A DNA stretch of 64,000 nt. It comes from Octopus vulgaris. Taxonomy: Eukaryota. The notes under the pieces were generated by a model. That model was not told the DNA's origin. It worked only from the letters and a program-made list of their open reading frames with translations, and ran no database searches. Positions 5,414 to 59,376 of the stretch are shown here, in pieces. The position numbers were made by a program, and so were the translations under genes. The DNA lies in assembly GCA_951406725.2 (NCBI GenBank), contig OX597822.1:44454001-44518000 (forward strand), read 5' to 3'. Numbering within the stretch: the first letter of the stretch is position 1; every line of letters starts with the position of its first letter.

Positions 5414-5887
5414 CAGATAGATAGATAGAGAGAGAGAGAGAAAGGGAGTGAGAATGAAAATGAGAGGGTGAAATATTCGCTAGCACAAACCAACTATATA
5501 GCAGTTTATATGCATCTGGATGCAGTTAACCCATGAAATAACACAATAGCTTTCTGTGCAAACTGATATACGAATGCACGGATATTGGGTTGGTCTTTGT
5601 CTATATGTGTATACGTGTGTGTACTTATATGTGTATATACATATACATACATACATACATACATATGTACATTTAGCCTTATATGTATATGCGTTTACAT
5701 TCACACTTATATATGAGCATATATATATCTACACACACACAAACACACACACACATGCACACGTATATATATATATATATATATATATATAACGGGAAGG
5801 TTTACGAAAATAAACAAAAGACGAAGGCAGGTGGAGTACAAGCAAACAATGTATTAGTATGGCGCTCAGGAATAGAAATAAAACAAG

Positions 5888-5925
5888 TCTTTTACGTTTC
5901 GAGCCTCCGCTCTTCGACAGAAAGA
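5888..5925 (-). ncRNA. Minimal type I HHR-like motif, family A (CUGUNGA-A core)
   Basis: Minus strand reads tcttt-CTGTCGA-A-gagc(ggag)gctc-GAAAC-GTA^aaaga. Stem III is the palindrome ACGT. It lies within a ~200-bp element (about 5791-5990) that ends at (TA)n. Confidence 0.65.
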
Positions 5926-6185
5926 TACACAGAAAAGAAACAAGGAGAGAAAAAATTGCGTGTAGGAGTTAACGATCCAATGCTTGCTTGGATTTACTTT
6001 CTCTTCTGAAAGAAATATGTTGTTGATAGTGACATCGAAGTTTTGGCCAGTTAAGCCTCCGTCGGACAACTTAACTGATCGAAACTTCGCAGTCACTGTC
6101 AACGACATTCTTTTTGGAGAAGAATATTTTTGTACTCTAAAAAAGTATAGATTAGCCCATCAGATGAATGTGAATTTTTTTCTTA

Positions 6186-6262
<77 letters not shown>

Positions 6263-6350
6263 GTATACGTATGCATTCATATCTGTGTATATATATGTAT
6301 GTGTGTGTGTGTTTATGTATGAGCGAGTGTGAGTTATTGAATGTTATCAA

Positions 6351-6757
6351 GGTGCAGGAGTGGCTGTGTGGTAAGTAGTTTGCCTACTAACCGCATGGTT
6401 CTATGTTCAGTCCCACTTCGTGGCACATTGGGCAGGTGTCTTCTACTATAGCCTCGGGTCGACAAAAGGATTGTGAGTGGATTTGATAGACGGAAACTGA
6501 AAGAAGCCCGTCGTATATATAAGTGTGTGTGTGTGTGATTGTGTGTCTGTGTTTGTCCCCCCCCCACCATCGCTTCAAAACCGATGCTGGTATGTTTACG
6601 TCCCCGTAACTTAGCGATTCCGCAAAAGAGACCGATAGAATAAGTATGAGACTTACAAAGAATAAGTCCTGGGTCGATTTGTCCGACTAAAAGGCGTTGC
6701 TCCAGCATGGCCGCAGTCAAATGACTGAAACAAGTAAAAGAATAAAAGAATAAAGAA
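6351..6757 (+). mobile_element. SINE family 1, full length
   Basis: tRNA-like head, internal (TA)/(TG) microsatellite, and tail gctccagcatggccgcagtcaaatgactgaaacaagtaaaagaataaaaga. Confidence 0.9.
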
Positions 6758-7169
6758 TATATATACACTCGTGTATATATATATATATATATATATATAT
6801 GAATATATAAATAAATACATGTCTGAGTGTGTGTGTATGTGCGTGTACATGCTTGTCTCCTTGTGTGTATGTGAGTGAGTGTGCATATGTATCGAGATAG
6901 CAAGGGAGAGATATGTAGTTGGGTATTTTGTTGTGACTTTGTGTGCTTTTAAATAAAGTAATGAAAACGTTGCTCTGACAGACTCTTTCATGTATTTTCC
7001 GCTCTTAAATGAAGATTTCTTCTTAATAAACTACGATGTGCGTATATTACATATAAGGATTATCATATTAATATAAGATAAAGAGAGAGAGAGAGAGGAA
7101 GAGTAAGAAGATACAGAGGAAGAAAAGTTAGGGAGGGAAGTGAAAGGAAAGAGATAGATGAAGTGGGTA

Positions 7170-7843: not shown

Positions 7844-7968
7844 CAGGACTTATTCTTTGTAAGCCTAGTACTTATTTAATCGGTCTCTGTTGCCGAAGCG
7901 CTAGGTTATGGGGACGTAAACACACCAGCATGTAAACACACCAAGCAATGTTGGGTGGAAAAACACAG

Positions 7969-8012
<44 letters not shown>

Positions 8013-8165
8013 CTTTCGGTTTCCGTCTACCAAATCCACTCACAAGGATTTAGTCGGCCCGAGGCTATAGTAGAAGGCACTTGCTCATGGTGCCACGCAG
8101 GGGGATTGAACACTGAGCCACGTCGTTGGCAAGCAAGCTACTTACCAGACAGCCACTCCTGCGCC
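7844..8165 (-). mobile_element. SINE family 1
   Basis: Reverse-complement homology to the full copies. Confidence 0.85.
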
Positions 8166-8359
8166 TATATATATATATATATATATATATTAATATATAT
8201 ATTAAGTATATAATTATATAAATATGATTAATTCAGAACGCTGGAAAAATGCCGATAAAAATTTTAATGTTTCCACCACAAATTTGACCCAGACTACGTC
8301 TAACTTCATAGTACCACCTGATAGATTCTGTTAAGCCATTCTAAAGTTGACTTTTGTGG

Positions 8360-10355: not shown

Positions 10356-10804
10356 TTATTCTTTTACTCTTTCATTTGTTTCAGTCATTTCACTGCGGCC
10401 ATGCTGGGGCACCGCATTTGGTCGAACAAATCATCTGTAGAACTAATCCTTTGTAAACCGTGTACTTATTCTATCGGTGTCTTTTGCCGAACCGTTAATT
10501 TACGGGGACGTAAAAACACAAACATCGGTTGACAAGCGATGGTGGGAGGACAAACACAGTCACACAAACACACACATATATATATACATATATATATATA
10601 TACATACATATATATATAGGCATATAGATAAATAGATAGATAGATATCTACGACGGGCTTCTTTCAGTTTCCGTCTTCCAAATCCACTCGCAAGTCTTTG
10701 GTTGACTCGAGGCTATAGTAGAAGACCCTTGTCCAAGTTTCCCCGAAGTGGGACTGAACCCGGACCCATGTGGTTGGGAAGCAAAACTCTCACCACACAG
10801 CCAC
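10356..10804 (-). mobile_element. SINE family 1, full length
   Basis: Reverse-complement homology, with head and tail present. Confidence 0.88.
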
Positions 10805-10822
10805 TAATATATCTATTTAGGC

Positions 10823-21972: not shown

Positions 21973-21975
<3 letters not shown>

Positions 21976-22145
21976 TACAAAAAAGACAAAAGACGAAGAT
22001 GGGTGTGTAAACAACAATCAGATGTATTAGTTCAACGCTCGAAAGTGAGAAAGTCTTTTACGTTGCGAGCCAAAGTTCTTCAACAGAATGGAACACGAGA
22101 AAATAAACAGAGAGAGAAAATATTAAAAGGTTTAGTGGTTAGCGA
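21973..22145 (-). mobile_element. Family A short HHR-bearing element, degenerate copy
   Basis: Minus strand reads ctgttgaagaactttggctcgcaacgtaaaagactttctcactt...ctaatacatctg, homologous to the copies at 34370, 42965 and 59225. It ends at a (GA)n/(TA)n tract. Confidence 0.65.
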
Positions 22146-27405: not shown

Positions 27406-27696
27406 CAGGGTTTCCCAACCATTTTTTTAATCTATTGATTACGATTGTATTGAAATGGACTCCCTTAGCCATTCGATGCCTAAAAATTGGTTTTATACAA
27501 ACTATTTCAAAATTCCTATCATATAGGCGCAGGAGTGGCTGTGTGGTAAGTAGCTTGCTTACCAACCACATGGTTCCGGGTTCAGTCCCACTGCGTGACA
27601 TCTTGGGCAAGTGTCTTCTGCTATAGCCTCGGGCCGACCAATGCCTTGTGAGTGGATTTGGTAGATGGAAACTGAAAGAAGCCTGTCGTATATATG

Positions 27697-27727
<31 letters not shown>

Positions 27728-28124
27728 ATATGTTTGTGTGTTTGTCCCCCTAGCATTGCTTGACAACCGATGCTGGTGTGTTTAGGTCCCCGTCACTTAG
27801 CGGTTCGGCAAAAGAGACCGATAGAATAGGTACTGGGCTTACAAAGAATAAGTCCCGGGGTCGATTTGCTCGACTAAAGACGGTGCTCCAGCATGGCCGC
27901 AGTCAAATGACTGAAACTAGTAAAAGAGTAAAGAATAAAAGAGATATAAAATGTTAGAGAAAGAAACCTAGCTGCTTATTGCAATACATACTTCTAAAAC
28001 AAAACTTTTTTAGGGGCACGTAAAATGCTATTATCGATCCCCGATTTACAATTTTGTTATGTGGAGCCTCAGAAAGTTTATATGGGCCATCAGGGGCTAT
28101 ATGGACCCCGATTGAGGACTACTG
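27406..28124. mobile_element. Non-autonomous hAT (Charlie-like) element with a nested SINE
   Basis: An exact 8-bp TSD ATGTAGAA lies at 27398-27405 and 28125-28132 (NTNTAGAN type). The degenerate TIRs are cagggtttcccaacc and gattgaggactactg. Confidence 0.8.
27526..27941 (+). mobile_element. SINE family 1, full length, nested in the hAT element
   Basis: Near-consensus copy ggcgcaggagtggctgtgtggtaagtagcttgcttaccaaccacatggttccgggttcagtccc... Confidence 0.92.
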
Positions 28125-34369: not shown

Positions 34370-34540
34370 TTCATTTCCTCCCTGTTTATTTTCTTTTATT
34401 CCTTTCTGTTGAAGAGCGTATGCTCGAAACGTAAAAGACTTTCTCACCTTCCCGAGCGTCAAACTAATACACTTATTTGTTCACACACCTTTCTTCGTCT
34501 TTTGTTCTTCTATAAAATTCCGCTACATGTACTATAAATA
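34370..34540 (+). mobile_element. Family A short HHR-bearing element (HHR at 34402-34437)
   Basis: cttt-CTGTTGA-A-gagc(gtat)gctc-GAAAC-GTA^aaag, followed by the conserved family tail cccgagcgt.aaactaataca. Confidence 0.7.
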
Positions 34541-34755: not shown

Positions 34756-35998
34756 CAAGGTACGTAAGGTATTTAAGGACATAACTTTGTTGGGGGTCAT
34801 TGCCGCATTTTTTGCTAACTCTGTTTAATCTTTGTTTCAGAAAATAATAATTGCAGACCTTCAGCTTACTCAAGAAATGGAGAGGCATGTTGTTATTGTG
34901 ATTATAAATGCTGAACATAGCGATTTAGAAATATTTTGATTTTTAAACGTTACCATATTTTTGTCTACAAATTTTGTAAGGAGATAGGGAGTGAAGATGG
35001 AGACATATTACCAGTATGAAAGCCTAAAAAGCATTCTGAATGCTCTGAAGTCATCAGAACACCTTAATTTACCCAGCAAGTTCAACAGACCATTGATTAC
35101 AATCCCAGAAAGTCCATGAGGTCAATTGCAAAAGATCTCCATGAAAGGAAAAGTCAAAGATGTTGTCTACGGAGACATCAGAAATAAGCCTTATGTGATG
35201 AGGAAAGGTCAATTTGTCAGAAAAAGTAAATCACCACATCAGATCTAAAAGGCTCTTAAACAAACTGCAAAATCCAGCAGAAGATTTTTTTGGGGTTTTC
35301 TCAAACGAGTAAAACTTCGATCAAGATCAAAAACTTAACAGAAGAAATGACAGATGGTTATGTGCAGACCCTTCTGAAGTTACAAGTGTTATGCATACAA
35401 AGTTTCCTGCAACTGTCATGGTCTTAGGGATTGTCAGCAATGAAGGACATGTGATGCTTCCTTACTTCTTTCCACAAGGTCTTAGAGTTCACTCTGTCGC
35501 CTACATTGAGGTCCTGGAAACAAATGTTAAGCCCTGGATAGATAGTGTATGCAATGGAAGGCCATATGTGTTTCGGTAAGACTCTGTACTATAACATATG
35601 GCTCTAGTAACACAGAAATGGATGGCTGAAAATTTTCATGATCACATAACCCCTAACATTTGGCCTCCTAATTCCCCAGATCTCAATCCACTGGACTATT
35701 ACATGTGGAGCGCTTTTGAGAGAGAGGTCAATGAACACGCCCATAAAACCAATGATTCTTTGAAAGCTGCCATTGTCAGAGTAATGTCCAAAATGAACCA
35801 GGACCACTTGATTCGAGCATGTAGATGATTTAGATCTCATATAGAAGCAGTTGTTGAAGCTGAGAGTAGCTTTATTGAATAACATTATAGAAAAGAAGGT
35901 TTATTTTTATCCACACAATTTTTTAATAAATAGTTTTCTGTTATTATATGTGTTTTTTTATAAACATAAATCTGTCCTTAAATTTCTTACCAACCCTA
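34756..35998 (+). mobile_element. Decayed DD37D (maT-type) Tc1/mariner transposon
   Basis: Imperfect TIRs (caaggtacgtaaggtatttaaggaca and tgtccttaaatttcttaccaacccta) with TA flanks. The transposase remnant reads ...NRRNDRWL...KFPATVMVLGIVSNEG...GRPYVFR*DS...WPPNSPDLNPLDYY, with 37 residues between the 2nd and 3rd D. It contains stops and frameshifts. Confidence 0.9.
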
Positions 35999-37329: not shown

Positions 37330-37877
37330 CGTGTGTGTGTATACAAAAATGTAAATACATCTATATATATATGGTGGTTATCTACTCCTTATGCAGAGTT
37401 TGGCAACCTCCTGTAGCTACACATTAGAACCATCATAGCATCGGATGAGACGTTTTAAACCAGATAACGATTTGATAAGACACCCACCTAGATTGCATAT
37501 CTGATTCAGACTACCTAGAGTTGCAGTTAAGTTCTGAACTTCGTGGATCTTAAAATGTCTTTTGAGGTCTCCGTCAGATTTGCAAACCTTCTGGCATGCA
37601 TTGCATTGAAAGGTCAGCACAGACATACAGGCAGAATTGTATATATATGCATACACACAGAGACACACACTAGTACACACAACCACATACATATGTACGT
37701 ATATATATATATATATATATATATAAATGTATGTATAACAGGATACAGGATACACGGTGGTATAATATATCTAGAACTCTCTGGAAGTTCAGCGTTTTGT
37801 CGAATTGCGTCTATTTTCTATGAAACACTGTGTAGCAGACATGTTCTTTGGTTCGTATCTTTTCTACAGACATCCAC

Positions 37878-41110: not shown

Positions 41111-42287
41111 AATGACTATTATTAATTAGAAAGAAATATGAACATTATTAGTATTCCTATTCGTACTATTGTTGAGATTATCATTATTTTGCTCTCCTTA
41201 CTACTACTACTACTATTACTACTTTTATTATTGCTGTTGTTATTGTTGTTGTCGTTGTTGTTGTTATTTCTATTTATTTTTTCGTTCATGTGTATGGGAG
41301 GAAGAACGATTTTTTTGTTTGCTTTCACTCCTTTTTATTTTTGATGTTGTTTTCTTTATTGCCGTAGTTGTAGTAGTAGTAGTAGTTGTTGTTGTTGTTG
41401 TTGCTGTATTCATTGTTGTTGTTTTTGATCTTGTTGTTTTGATGGCTTCTTTTGGGGTTTTTTTTTTTAGTTTTTGTTTGTTATTTTTCTTTTCATTTCT
41501 AGCGACTGGAGGTTACTCGAAAATACGCGAATGAGGAATGATGACGTTTCGATTTATTGGACTGAGAGAGAAAAAAAATATTATAACATCGATGTGATTC
41601 TTGCGTTTTTTTGTTGTTGTTTTTTTTTCATTCTATGCTGAGATTGCCCTTGTAGTCTTTTTCTTTCATGTGCGGCAAACGCCATTCCCCGTCCATGAAT
41701 TGCACCCTGACACCACCGCTATCGCTACCGCCCACCGAAATCTCTGATGTGGGAAGGTGAAAAACTAAGAGCACAGATCAGACAACGTTACTGGAGAATC
41801 TAGTGTTTGATTTTCTCTTTTATTATATTTATAATATTATTCACATCGAAATTTTGCTGAATTGGGCGAAAATGTAAGACGCGGTTGAGCAATGAACATA
41901 AAATCGTTGATGTCTATATTTACCTTCTTTTCTTATATGAGTTCAAACACGACCCAGTTCGATTTTACATATCATTGAAAAAATATACGCCAGTCACGTT
42001 TTGAGATCGAATTTAATTAGCTATACTATTTCTCACGCCATAATTGTAAACTTGTATATGAAATCCACATTAATAACGTAGAGAAGAACGGTGAAAATCC
42101 GACAAATTGGTATAGGGCTAATGACCAAAATGGTTTAATGTGTTTATTAAACCTTGTACTTATAAACTCAGACACCGCCGAGACCCTCTCTGCCATTCTT
42201 TTTTGCTGGCAAGGTTAAATTAGGTACCAGTAGATTACTAAAGGTTATATGTATTGAGACTAAGTCAACAATCCTCTATTATTTATA

Positions 42288-42693
42288 GGCGCAGTAGTGG
42301 CTGTGTGGTAAGTAGCTTGCTTACCAACCACATGGTTCCGGGTTCAGTCCCACTGCGGGGCGCCTTGGGCAAGTGTCTTCTACTATAGCCTTGGGCCGAC
42401 TAAAGCCTTGTGAGTGGATTTGCTAGACGGAAACTGAAAAGAAGCCCGTTGTATATATATATATGTGTGTGTATGTGTGTGTGTGTGTCTGAGATCCCCC
42501 CCAAAAAAAAACATCGCTTGACAACCGATGCTGGTGTGTTTACGTCCCCGTCACTAAGCGGTTCGGCAAAAGAGACCAATAGAATAAGTACTAGGCTTAC
42601 AAAGAATAAGTCCTGGGGTCGATTTGCTCGGCTAAAAGTGGTGCTCTAGCATGGCCGCAGTCAAATGACTGAAACGAATAAAAGAATAAAAGA
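42288..42693 (+). mobile_element. SINE family 1, full length; a second degraded head lies at about 42790-42942
   Basis: Near-consensus copy. Confidence 0.92.
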
Positions 42694-42964
42694 ATGTGGA
42701 GTGTATTGGATCAGCAGATCTATTAGAGGGATGAACAAGGTGGCTGCAGAAGTGGTAGGAGCGGTAGAAAGTGGGGCAAGGAGCAAAAATTACTGCGTAG
42801 TAAAAATCTGCTTCCCAGCGACTTGATTCTGGGTTCAGTCCCACTACGTGGAACCTTGATCAGATAGCTTCTTCTATAATCTTGGACTGAGCCAAGCCTT
42901 GTGAATGTATTTGATAGACGGACACTGAAAGAAGTCCGTCGTTTATTGCTAGCCAGAAAACCTG

Positions 42965-43125
42965 TATCTATTTTCTCTCCCTGTTTATTTTTGTGTTCGT
43001 TCCTGTGGAAGAGCCTAGGCTCGAAACGTAAAAGACTTTCTCACTTCCCGAGCGTTAAACTAATACATCTGTTTGTTCTTTACACACCCGTCTTTTTTTT
43101 TTTTTGTAAATTCTCACTAAATATA
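42965..43125 (+). mobile_element. Family A short HHR-bearing element (core at 43003-43034)
   Basis: CTGTGGA-A-gagcc(ta)ggctc-GAAACGTA^aaag plus the family tail. It ends at (TA)n. A more decayed copy lies at about 43620-43735. Confidence 0.7.
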
Positions 43126-45556: not shown

Positions 45557-45977
45557 AAAAGAATTCCAACCTTGTCTGATTTTCACGTTTTATTTACAAT
45601 CTTATAATGATATATTATAAGATAATATATTATAATTGAATAAAATAAAATGAAATAGTAGAATGTTAAATATTCATTCTGATTGAACTAGTACTTTCAT
45701 GCATTGAATTCTGCAATCTTCGGGTTCATGTAGTAGTGTTGACAGTCATGCTTCACAATTTTTGACTGTCAAAAATTGTGAAGCATGACTGTCAACACTA
45801 CTACATGAACCCGAAGATTGCAGAATTCAATGCATGAAAGTACTAGTTCAATCAGAATGAATATTTAACATTCTACTATTTCATTTTATTTTATTCAATT
45901 ATAATATATTATCTTATAATATATCATTATAAGATTGTAAATAAAACGTGAAAATCAGACAAGGTTGGAATTCTTTT
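45557..45977. repeat. Perfect palindrome (~210-bp arms, 1-nt centre at 45767) flanked by (TA)n
   Basis: The arms are reverse complementary around ...tttttgac-t-gtcaaaaa... The match extends a few more bp after a 1-nt indel. Confidence 0.95.
45806..45850 (+). ncRNA. Type I HHR with U4C core; mirror copy on the minus strand at 45684-45728
   Basis: tgaac-CCGAAGA-t-tgca(gaattcaa)tgca-t-GAAA-gtac-TA^gttca. Stem III is the palindrome AGTACT. Confidence 0.7.
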
Positions 45978-51553: not shown

Positions 51554-51651
51554 ATATGTATGTATATATTATAGAGATGTACTTGCATAGCAAGTGATCT
51601 GATCTGAGATCGTGTGTTGGAACGAAAAAAATTGCAGCGTGGAAGGTGTTT

Positions 51652-51871
51652 ATAAGCCATTTAAGAAACACACAAAAACCGTTAGATTCACTTCAACATT
51701 TAAATTTAATTTGCCAAAATATTTTCGTCGCTTTGAGACACTGACAAAATTCCGCGCTGCATTTTGTCAGTGAACAGGTCGCAGTTTCAAAGCGACGAAA
51801 ATGTTTTGGCAAATCAAATTTAAATGTTGAATTGAATATAACGGTTTTTGCGTGTTTCTTAAATGGCTTAT
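51652..51871. repeat. Imperfect long inverted repeat nested in the (TA)n of a SINE
   Basis: Arms at about 51652-51750 and 51761-51871 have a 10-nt spacer and several mismatches. The left arm lacks about 13 nt covering the ribozyme core. Confidence 0.9.
51763..51813 (+). ncRNA. Type I HHR motif with G3:C8 swapped core
   Basis: tttgtca-GTGAACA-g-gtcgc(agtttcaaa)gcgac-GAAA-atgt-TT^tggcaaa, with a 7-bp stem I and a 5-bp stem II. The left arm preserves the palindromic stem III AATATT. Confidence 0.7.
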
Positions 51872-52306
51872 GATCACCGCCCATGGTGCAATTGTATATA
51901 TATATACGTGCGTGGTGGGTGGTACTCCCGCCATCGCTTGACAGCTGATGTTCGTTCGTTTAAGTCCCTGAAACCTAGGCATGCAAAGAAAAGGCCCTGT
52001 GGTCGATTCGTTCGACTATAGGCGGTGCTTCAGTGTGGCTTCAGTCAAATGACTGAAACAAAAAAATTTAAAAATACGTACACACACACACATAAATATA
52101 TATAATAAAAATATGTTACAGACGAAAATAGAAACTACACGGGCAATTTTAAGGGGAAAGTAAGAAGAAAAATAAGCGAAAGTGCACATTGGAAATCAAA
52201 AAAAGTAAAGGCTTTTTATGAAAAGTAATGATATATATATATACAATTAGATGAATTGAGGTAGGAATAAAAGTAATAAAAGTCATTATTGTGAATTGTT
52301 AAAGAG

Positions 52307-57240: not shown

Positions 57241-57275
<35 letters not shown>

Positions 57276-57277
<2 letters not shown>

Positions 57278-57691
57278 GAGAAAGAAGCAACAAGAATGGA
57301 TTGGTTTTTAGTACAATTGTTTCATACAAAGACAGGCTTTATTACAAGTTACAAAAATTGCAGCAGATAAAAGTGTCCCGTACTCATCAGCTAAAATACA
57401 TTTGAGTTCTCTAGACATCTTAGTGGGTGAGGTTATACTCATGAGATATTGGAGATAGTTCCAATATCTTGGAAAACTGTTTACAACCTATATCTGCCTC
57501 TAATGGAACTATCTCCAATATCTCATGAGTATAACCTCACCCACTAAGATGTCTAGAGAACTCAAATGTATTTTAGCTGATGAGTACGGGACACTTTTAT
57601 CTGCTGCAATTTTTGCAACTTGTAATAAAGCCTGTCTTTGTATGAAACAATTGTACTAAAAACCAATCCATTCTTGTTGCTTCTTTCTCGT
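57276..57691. repeat. Near-perfect inverted repeat (188-bp arms, 40-bp spacer) in an element inserted in (TA)n
   Basis: Arms are 57276-57463 and 57504-57691, with one mismatch seen. The right side continues unpaired to (TA)n at about 57810. Confidence 0.95.
57571..57661 (+). ncRNA. Type I HHR with extended stem II; mirror copy on the minus strand at 57306-57396
   Basis: ttttag-CTGATGA-gtacgggaca...tgtctttgtat-GAAA-caattg-TA^ctaaaa. The core is canonical and stem III is the palindrome ACAATTGT. Confidence 0.85.
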
Positions 57692-57809
57692 TTATAATCA
57701 CCCCACATTACTGTATGGATAACACCATATAGTTTTTCTGGTGCATCTAAGTTAAGTACCACATTCAAGTAAATTCATTGGAAGTTACTTGAATCTTAAT
57801 TGCTTTGAT

Positions 57810-57841
<32 letters not shown>

Positions 57842-58483
57842 CATATACATAATGAGTGTATGTTCGAAAAAGAAGTCCTATCCTATGATCGTGATTTATG
57901 CGAATTACAGGACAAACTTTATTTATTCCATATACCAAAATATTCGAAGTATTACGCAAGCAGCAAACGACATCAAAACCAATATGACATGCGCAGAGAA
58001 AATCGGCTCGATGAAAATATATCGGCTGCTTTATTCAAATAATTCAATGAAAAGTTGACAGGCGAGAGAGTCTCATGGTGATTGCTAATATGTGGTGTGT
58101 AGATGTCTAATAAATATTGTTTTATTAATAATATGTAAGCTACCAAAGTATCTATCGAAAATTACGATAGAAAACCCATACTCCTCGGTATTATGAGAGC
58201 TGTCAAGATGTATTTTAGTATTTTAACAAACGAAGTTAGCCGCTGTATTCATATCGTCCATTATATGTATATTCAACAAGTAAATGATTGCTGCCAGAGT
58301 AAAATTTGTTATCTCTTCCTCGTGTGTTACACGACATTAGTTGTAAAACATTTTTTCTTCTTATCTACTAAGGCAATTTGCAATTATGTATCATGACATC
58401 CGAGGTACACACGTTAGACAGATAGTTTCGCAATAAAGTTATCTCGTTCAACTTGACAATGTCTTTTATGTATTACTTTGAGC

Positions 58484-59224: not shown

Positions 59225-59376
59225 ACACACATTCTTTTTTTCTCCTTGTTTCTTTCTGTGGAAGACCGTAGACTCGAAACGTTAAAGACTTTTTCAATTC
59301 CCGAGCGTTATACTAATACATCCGTTTGTTTTCTACACCACCTGTCTTCGTCTTTTGTTGTTTTTTTGTGAATTCT

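Follow-up and report, generated by a model that had tools for sequence, protein, structure and literature searches.

The window, by which we mean the whole 64-kb stretch of DNA analysed here, is AT-rich, microsatellite-rich DNA of animal type, and its set of repeats looks octopus-like. It carries an insertion without protein-coding capacity, made up of two 188-bp arms, one the reverse complement of the other with a single mismatch (A at 57351 against C at 57616), around a spacer of 40 nt (57464-57503). The right arm extends 115-117 nt further than its partner, to about 57806-57808. A first-pass annotation had described arms of this length, a 40-bp spacer, one mismatch and one arm longer by about 120 bp, all of which were borne out. 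The inverted pair has (TA)n on either side, inside which no target-site duplication can be read. No further copies of the 57276-57808 element were found elsewhere in the window, and no head-to-tail repeat was found at the locus. Two truncated 3' ends of a hammerhead-bearing repeat with many copies meet here head-to-head (Table 1).

Table 1. Features of the head-to-head insertion and its flanks (positions in the window).
Feature	Position	Strand	Basis
(TA)17 microsatellite, left target side; last base common to arm	57243-57276	.	sequence
Inverted arm of 188 bp, copied from the 3' end of the repeat and truncated 5'	57276-57463	-	repeat search, contig alignment
Left-hand type I hammerhead motif, with the arm mismatch (57351) in its distal stem II	57306-57396	-	motif scan
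Junction hairpin, 11 pairs (one G·T), 4-nt loop, -7.6 to -9.0 kcal/mol as DNA	57444-57469	+	
Five non-native junction bases, continuing snap-back copy of 57444-57449	57464-57468	+	absent from other copies
Native element sequence, right arm only, remainder of spacer	57469-57503	+	X1, X4, X8 contigs align from 57469
Native quasi-palindrome where inverted arm ends	57504-57517	+	junction analysis
Right arm, sense copy, 188 bp	57504-57691	+	repeat search
Type I hammerhead motif, right copy	57571-57661	+	motif scan
One-sided tail, 115-117 nt, two hairpins	57692-57808	+	contig alignment, folding
Imperfect (TA)n microsatellite, right target side	57810-57850	.	sequence

The stretch 57460-57808 is present in 20 of the 24 runs listed (9 studies, four organism labels). 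All of the runs are sets of contigs, and none of those carrying the stretch was listed as RNA; that X4 (see below) is RNA is a guess only. We aligned contigs from four of the 24 runs, referred to here as X1, X3, X4 and X8, to its 349 bases; X1 may be the source sample itself. The numbers of aligning contigs were 884, 747, 74 and 217, respectively. The aligned contigs were short, and many of them matched at 90-95% identity or lower, indicating a diverse many-copy repeat; the depth sums in this alignment do not measure copy number and were not treated as if they did. Exact-pattern scans for the repeat returned 0 matches in metagenome contigs and 0 in viral contigs.

Among the loose ends listed (24 entries, with 133 beyond them), 57696 is followed by (TA)n in 14 X3 contigs and 9 X8 contigs. 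A T>A change at 57692, 5-6 letters from the contig ends in X3, X4 and X8, coincides precisely with the point where the left arm ends. In right-arm coordinates this recurrent short terminus, at which the inverted arm ends on its outer side, is 57691-57696. Behind 57806, 2 of the contigs listed, both from X4, have a loose end that passes into (TA)n. The aligned stretch ended at 57808, and because 57806 lies near that end the long terminus is weaker than the short one. From these alignments, the outer ends of the locus look like two termini of the family, the short one well supported and the long one weakly. The tail between them contains two hairpins (57710-57733 and 57763-57794) and its fold is more stable than that of every one of 200 shuffled sequences (z -4.0). 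There is a hint from sequence comparison that the first tail hairpin is kept. In other copies, the variants 57730 T>C, 57711 C>T and 57719 A>T look compatible with its stem; for 57713 G>T and the second-hairpin changes this is not clear.

A scan of the whole window for type I hammerheads gave two matches, both in the insertion (+57577 and -57390). In a stricter scan two were observed, against one match across 60 order-2 Markov simulations of the window. There is one hammerhead per strand and one per arm, pointing outward, and the earlier claim of a hammerhead on both strands therefore stands. The conserved type I core (CUGANGA / GAAA / UH with three helices) is present. In the right copy, stem I has 6 bp (57571-57576 with 57656-57661), CUGAUGA occupies 57577-57583, GAAA occupies 57644-57647, and the stem II domain between them (57584-57643) is exactly 60 nt long; stem I and a stem II domain of about 60 nt had both been noted correctly. 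Stem III is the palindrome ACAAUUGU (57647-57654), the cleavage triplet is GUA, and the cut is predicted between 57655 and 57656. The core had been called canonical, which holds for the CUGAUGA/GAAA/GUA boxes but not fully for the motif: pair 10.1-11.1 is G·U instead of the usual G-C, with no variant listed there in X1, X3, X4 or X8. A U-U pair at 10.1-11.1 is tolerated in natural hammerheads, according to PMC3088659. A search with Rfam gave no hammerhead match at the gathering score, and none among the 55 matches at E <=10. Its miRNA-precursor matches were below the gathering score and were rejected as generic hairpin matches.

Sequence variation between copies bears on the same motif. The 35 positions of the core and its flanks contain none of the 18 variant positions listed within 57540-57700 (p 0.009), and this variant-free core suggests selection on the source elements. 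Low-depth insertions are present in the 3' strand of stem I in other copies, and the variant 57649 A>G would leave the stem III palindrome pairable via G·U. The 60-nt stem II is only modestly more stable than its shuffles (z -1.55; 17 of 200 equally good). Of its seven variant positions, taken in the best register, one retains its pair, two lose theirs and four are unpaired, with no clear covariation.

When the monomer was folded, the hammerhead fold reached -9.1 kcal/mol against a minimum of -14.0 kcal/mol, a gap of 4.9, and the pairing probability was about 0.4 for stem I and about 0.6 for the base of stem II. The first-pass annotation had proposed an 8-bp palindromic stem III. The palindrome is indeed 8 nt long, but 8 bp are formed only between two molecules, and in the monomer the sole Watson-Crick pair of stem III has a probability of 0.02. 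The palindrome alone gives an 8-bp duplex of -6.4 kcal/mol; in an unconstrained two-molecule fold the stem III duplex was not formed. The two ribozymes are on opposite strands and therefore cannot form a dimer within one transcript, unlike the cis dimer of tandem Penelope-like elements (PLEs). In folded read-through RNA of either direction, the pairing probability of hammerhead stem I was 0.0. The ribozyme is predicted to be silent in such RNA because the sense hammerhead sits in the second arm, trapped in the 188-bp hairpin, and the model predicts that the hammerhead of the locus does not cut unless transcription begins inside the insertion.

At the centre of the insertion, position 57469 is where the alignments of X1, X4 and X8 contigs begin; in X1 (2 contigs) and X4 (1 contig) the letters in front of it differ. 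In X4 and X8 the first depth bin holds 3/12 of the depth of the lone record starting at 57469, and 57460-57468 is therefore uncovered in both. Since the other copies differ or are uncovered before 57469, bases 57464-57468 are non-native and the junction is specific to the locus. The junction itself was found in none of the aligned contigs of the four runs, which show presence and not absence. The left arm reaches no further than the first base of the native quasi-palindrome, so the top-strand 3' end of this arm can fold back with 5 pairs and a 4-nt loop, and adding 57464-57469 lengthens this fold-back from 5 to 11 pairs. The spacer had been said to start with a word repeated from the arm. The repeat is real and 10 nt long (57460-57469 equals 57514-57523), but its first four bases belong to the arm and not to the spacer; a local repeat of 10 nt is expected from a random 5-mer in 0.5-1.4% of cases. 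Of the microhomology-mediated template switching that this word was taken to hint at, templated synthesis at 57464-57468 can be retained, but plain microhomology is reduced to the overlap of about 1 nt between the join and the native right segment. The mark left at the junction is templated snap-back synthesis more than microhomology.

The window contains other inverted and hammerhead-like repeats. A second, unrelated head-to-head palindrome lies at 45557-45977, with 210-bp arms, zero mismatch and a 1-nt centre at 45767. It has (TA)n on the left and no tail, and the word at its centre, TGACTGTCAA, occurs again at 45787-45796. Each arm bears a minimal hammerhead-like motif (+45811 and -45723) with a palindromic stem III, a U4-to-C box (CCGAAGA) and U-U at 10.1-11.1; the relaxed scan gave 1 match in 40 simulated windows. 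A third repeat family has five copies: 5790-6200 and 21974-22124 on the minus strand, and 34374-34506, 42971-43110 and 59236-59365 on the plus strand. Each copy is a short end that bears a minimal hammerhead-like motif, and four of the five have a microsatellite about 100 nt downstream. All five have U at core position 6 (CUGUNGA for CUGANGA), which is therefore a family-wide variant, and one copy, at 5920, contains a stretch in inverted orientation (6002-6123). An older inverted repeat (51630-51893; arms 81% identical, TA-rich flank, no hammerhead found) is MITE-like or resembles a decayed inverted insertion. The window also holds many copies of a 300-450-nt interspersed repeat, 70-86% alike (6350-6765, 7844-8173, 10356-10806, 27522-27948, 42284-42695 and others), which we take to be SINE-like.

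To which class of element does the repeat belong? Several of its features are those of PLEs: a type I hammerhead with a short palindromic stem III near the 3' end, 5' truncation with an adjacent head-to-head inverted copy and a palindrome at the junction, a tail at one end between two recurrent termini, and a microsatellite target, (TA)n being found at the locus and behind other copies. The tail, at 115-117 nt, goes beyond the published 30-40 bp. PLEs with an endonuclease (EN+) are further marked by an ORF for a telomerase-like RT and a GIY-YIG endonuclease, in the element itself or in its autonomous parent, and by partial-tandem pLTR-ORF-pLTR copies. A Pfam scan of 150 frames of the window (picked from 316) found an RT or GIY-YIG domain in none of them, an absence expected for a 350-nt stump. 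Two regions gave weak Pfam matches below the curated cut-offs, 37420-37770 (-) to a C2H2 zinc finger (E 0.0008) and 35595-35825 (+) to a DDE endonuclease fragment (E 0.0001); the search found no homologue of the zinc-finger frame. Protein searches with three short frames of the element (30 aa; 51 aa against longer proteins; 70 aa antisense), which are weak tests, returned nothing. Reading the frame from 57470 as a PLE ORF end and the ATG at 57715 as a sister-subfamily ORF start was a guess, with few loose ends and no search support, and was dropped. A sigma-70 promoter scan was set aside as inapplicable to an animal genome. Neither a protein nor a contig linking the repeat to RT or GIY-YIG was found in these searches. 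Because no RT or endonuclease partner was found, PLE membership is deduced from structure, and the repeat is likely to be the pseudo-LTR (pLTR) of a PLE. The inverted-pLTR architecture named in the first-pass annotation fits every structural feature, the published layout and the recurrent ends in (TA)n; the link to an RT element is the part of that claim that was not found. The parent element may be Neptune-like, which is a guess only: Neptune and Naiad elements have both been reported to target (TA)n, and canonical hammerheads are lacking in Naiads (PMC8557442).

In Adineta vaga, pLTRs are inverted head-to-head, with junction palindromes and a one-sided tail of 31 bp (PMC3846280), and inverted pLTRs with a one-sided tail are described as general features of PLEs (PMC8557442). 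The inverted pLTRs of EN+ PLEs (Arkhipova et al., 2013, PMC3846280; Craig et al., 2021, PMC8557442) share with the locus the head-to-head 5'-truncated copy, the junction palindrome, the tail on one arm, the AT-rich or (TA)n target and arms of similar size (181-218 bp there, 188 bp here). By contrast, an ORF is absent here, no autonomous partner was found, the duplication is unreadable, and the tail is 115-117 nt instead of 30-40 bp. PLE hammerheads (Cervera and de la Pena, 2014, PMC4209133; PMC6765202) have the same type I topology and a short palindromic helix III suited to dimers, and in Schistosoma they occur as opposite-strand pairs 100-700 bp apart, the layout seen here. Ours differs from them in its 60-nt stem II domain, against helices of 4-8 bp there, in having G·U for the conserved G10.1-C11.1 with no extra base between 9 and 10.1, and in its 6-bp stem I, and it is missed by Rfam. 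The Poseidon element PAc of Anolis carolinensis (Frangieh et al., 2024, PMC11167929) likewise has two 3' termini, with a tail between them that lies downstream of the hammerhead, an AT-rich target and structured RNA at the start sites; its start sites were measured, whereas those proposed here, about 115 nt apart, are deduced from contig ends. The animal non-LTR retrozymes (PMC7229834; bioRxiv 10.64898/2026.07.22.740005) are likewise non-coding, dispersed, many-copy repeats with a type I hammerhead, and their mobilisation by PLEs has been proposed. They are, however, head-to-tail tandem monomers, while the present repeat lies head-to-head, its 3' ends are fixed and its native upstream sequence is longer. 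In the giant squid, 235 Rfam hammerhead-1 loci are reported (PMC12910113, PMC6962438). Searches of the freely available papers, main texts only for PMC8557442, PMC4209133 and PMC11167929, found no cephalopod PLE hammerhead with such features. What is new here is only the family, the 60-nt stem II with its G·U base and the structured tail of 115-117 nt; the layout is already published.

We conclude that the locus is very probably a PLE-type inverted insertion, made either by priming on two strands or by the fold-back of a single cDNA. Relative to the element RNA, the top strand of the left arm and the bottom strand of the right arm are antisense, and each starts in (TA)n at a terminus of the family. 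PMC11167929 describes an anole PLE protein, predicted to be a dimer, that cleaves and extends both target strands, and whose RT starts in vitro at two internal sites bounding the tail. Given the two antisense strands and this behaviour of the anole protein, two-strand priming followed by snap-back and end joining explains the ends and the junction in the fewest steps. Starting from what was observed directly (the anatomy, the family, the recurrent short end in front of (TA)n and five junction bases that are not native), we infer all five steps of such a route. A PLE RT/GIY-YIG protein would cut both strands of a (TA)n run. The top strand would then prime a cDNA at the upstream site (about 57691-57696), which would stop after 188 nt at the quasi-palindrome, and the bottom strand would prime a cDNA of about 340 nt at the downstream site (about 57806), reaching 57469. 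The 3' end of the first cDNA would snap back on itself and gain 5-6 templated bases, and finally the two 3' ends, overlapping by about 1 nt, would be joined, and gap filling would complete the insertion. The tail would be the stretch of RNA between the two start sites. The reading we lean towards, with modest confidence, is that each of the two cut target strands served as a primer for cDNA, at two fixed start sites, and that the truncated cDNAs were then joined into one insertion. The fuller scenario, in which the locus is the fossil of a PLE dimer that made two cDNAs from fixed sites about 115 nt apart, flanking a double-hairpin RNA, and joined them after snap-back, is put forward tentatively. 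Two-strand priming as the cause of inverted pLTRs was not found in the freely available papers searched, main texts only for PMC8557442, PMC4209133 and PMC11167929. In PMC11167929 inverted pLTRs are not discussed, and the lone use of "inverted" concerns blocking dT.

Some observations speak against a PLE insertion made by two-strand priming. The published tails measure 30-40 bp, about a third of the length seen here. Also counting against it are the negative searches for RT and GIY-YIG, the fact that the two contigs behind the long terminus come from one run, the absence of the junction from the aligned contigs and the unreadable target-site duplication in (TA)n. The spacer and the tail are on the same arm, which two-strand priming allows about half the time and fold-back demands; fold-back also demands that the arms agree, as they do at 18 of the 18 family-variable positions checked, several of them with minority letters. 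If there was instead one priming event, a single cDNA (or a self-priming antisense RNA) would have started at the long end and run to 57469, re-copied 57514-57523, folded back at 57504-57507 and copied outward, to be trimmed or resolved at the tail boundary by an endonuclease. Junction palindromes were interpreted as self-priming by Arkhipova et al. (2013, PMC3846280), and the tail has been ascribed to endonuclease resolution (PMC8557442); the 1-nt centre of the palindrome at 45557-45977 fits this route as well. It requires, however, that synthesis switch twice at the junction and halt precisely at a terminus common to the family, and in vitro both tail boundaries are RT start sites (PMC11167929). 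The PLE tail is seen "at either end" of insertions (PMC8557442), which the fold-back of one cDNA would not readily produce. We regard this one-cDNA route as a serious contender, though the less likely one.

Templated snap-back insertions are typical of end-joining repair. The mirror arm might have arisen later at the DNA level, when the quasi-palindrome prompted template switching during replication or was the site of a repaired break; the palindrome might also be partly an artefact of assembly or polishing. Fold-back insertions at breaks, treated in PMC11724301, count in favour of such an origin, as do the lack of the junction in the contigs aligned and the near-identical arms that polishing could yield. 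It appears improbable, since the inverted arm ends at the recurrent terminus of the family with tail and flank uncopied, (TA)n is found on both sides, and the second, unrelated hammerhead repeat in the window is also head-to-head. An even smaller chance, and a very slim one, is left to a self-standing non-autonomous element, MITE-like or a retrozyme monomer, moving as a whole 535-bp unit. Its long near-perfect, terminal-like inverted repeats and TA context would suit such a unit, and type I hammerheads are typical of non-LTR retrozymes (PMC7229834). MITEs, however, have symmetric terminal inverted repeats and a conserved mobile centre, whereas here the ends are asymmetric by about 115 nt and other copies have different sequence before 57469, making the centre locus-specific. 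The head-to-tail tandem monomers of retrozymes, each with a hammerhead, were not seen at the locus, nor was an end-to-start joint in the contigs aligned, which show presence and not absence.

With its layout already known, the locus contributes little by itself, and its value lies in the clean record it offers of the way PLE insertions form. Self-priming was proposed as the source of inverted arms in 2013, and two RT start sites with two-strand extension were demonstrated in vitro in 2024. Two-strand priming and self-priming make opposite, countable predictions on which arm carries the tail. Two-strand priming, if true, accounts for inverted pLTRs and the one-sided tail together, and a many-copy family with an easily scored long tail would then allow a test of the two models in genome sequences. 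The repeat is also a many-copy animal hammerhead family, with a 60-nt stem II, that escapes Rfam, and head-to-head loci of this kind would give long double-stranded RNA if read through.
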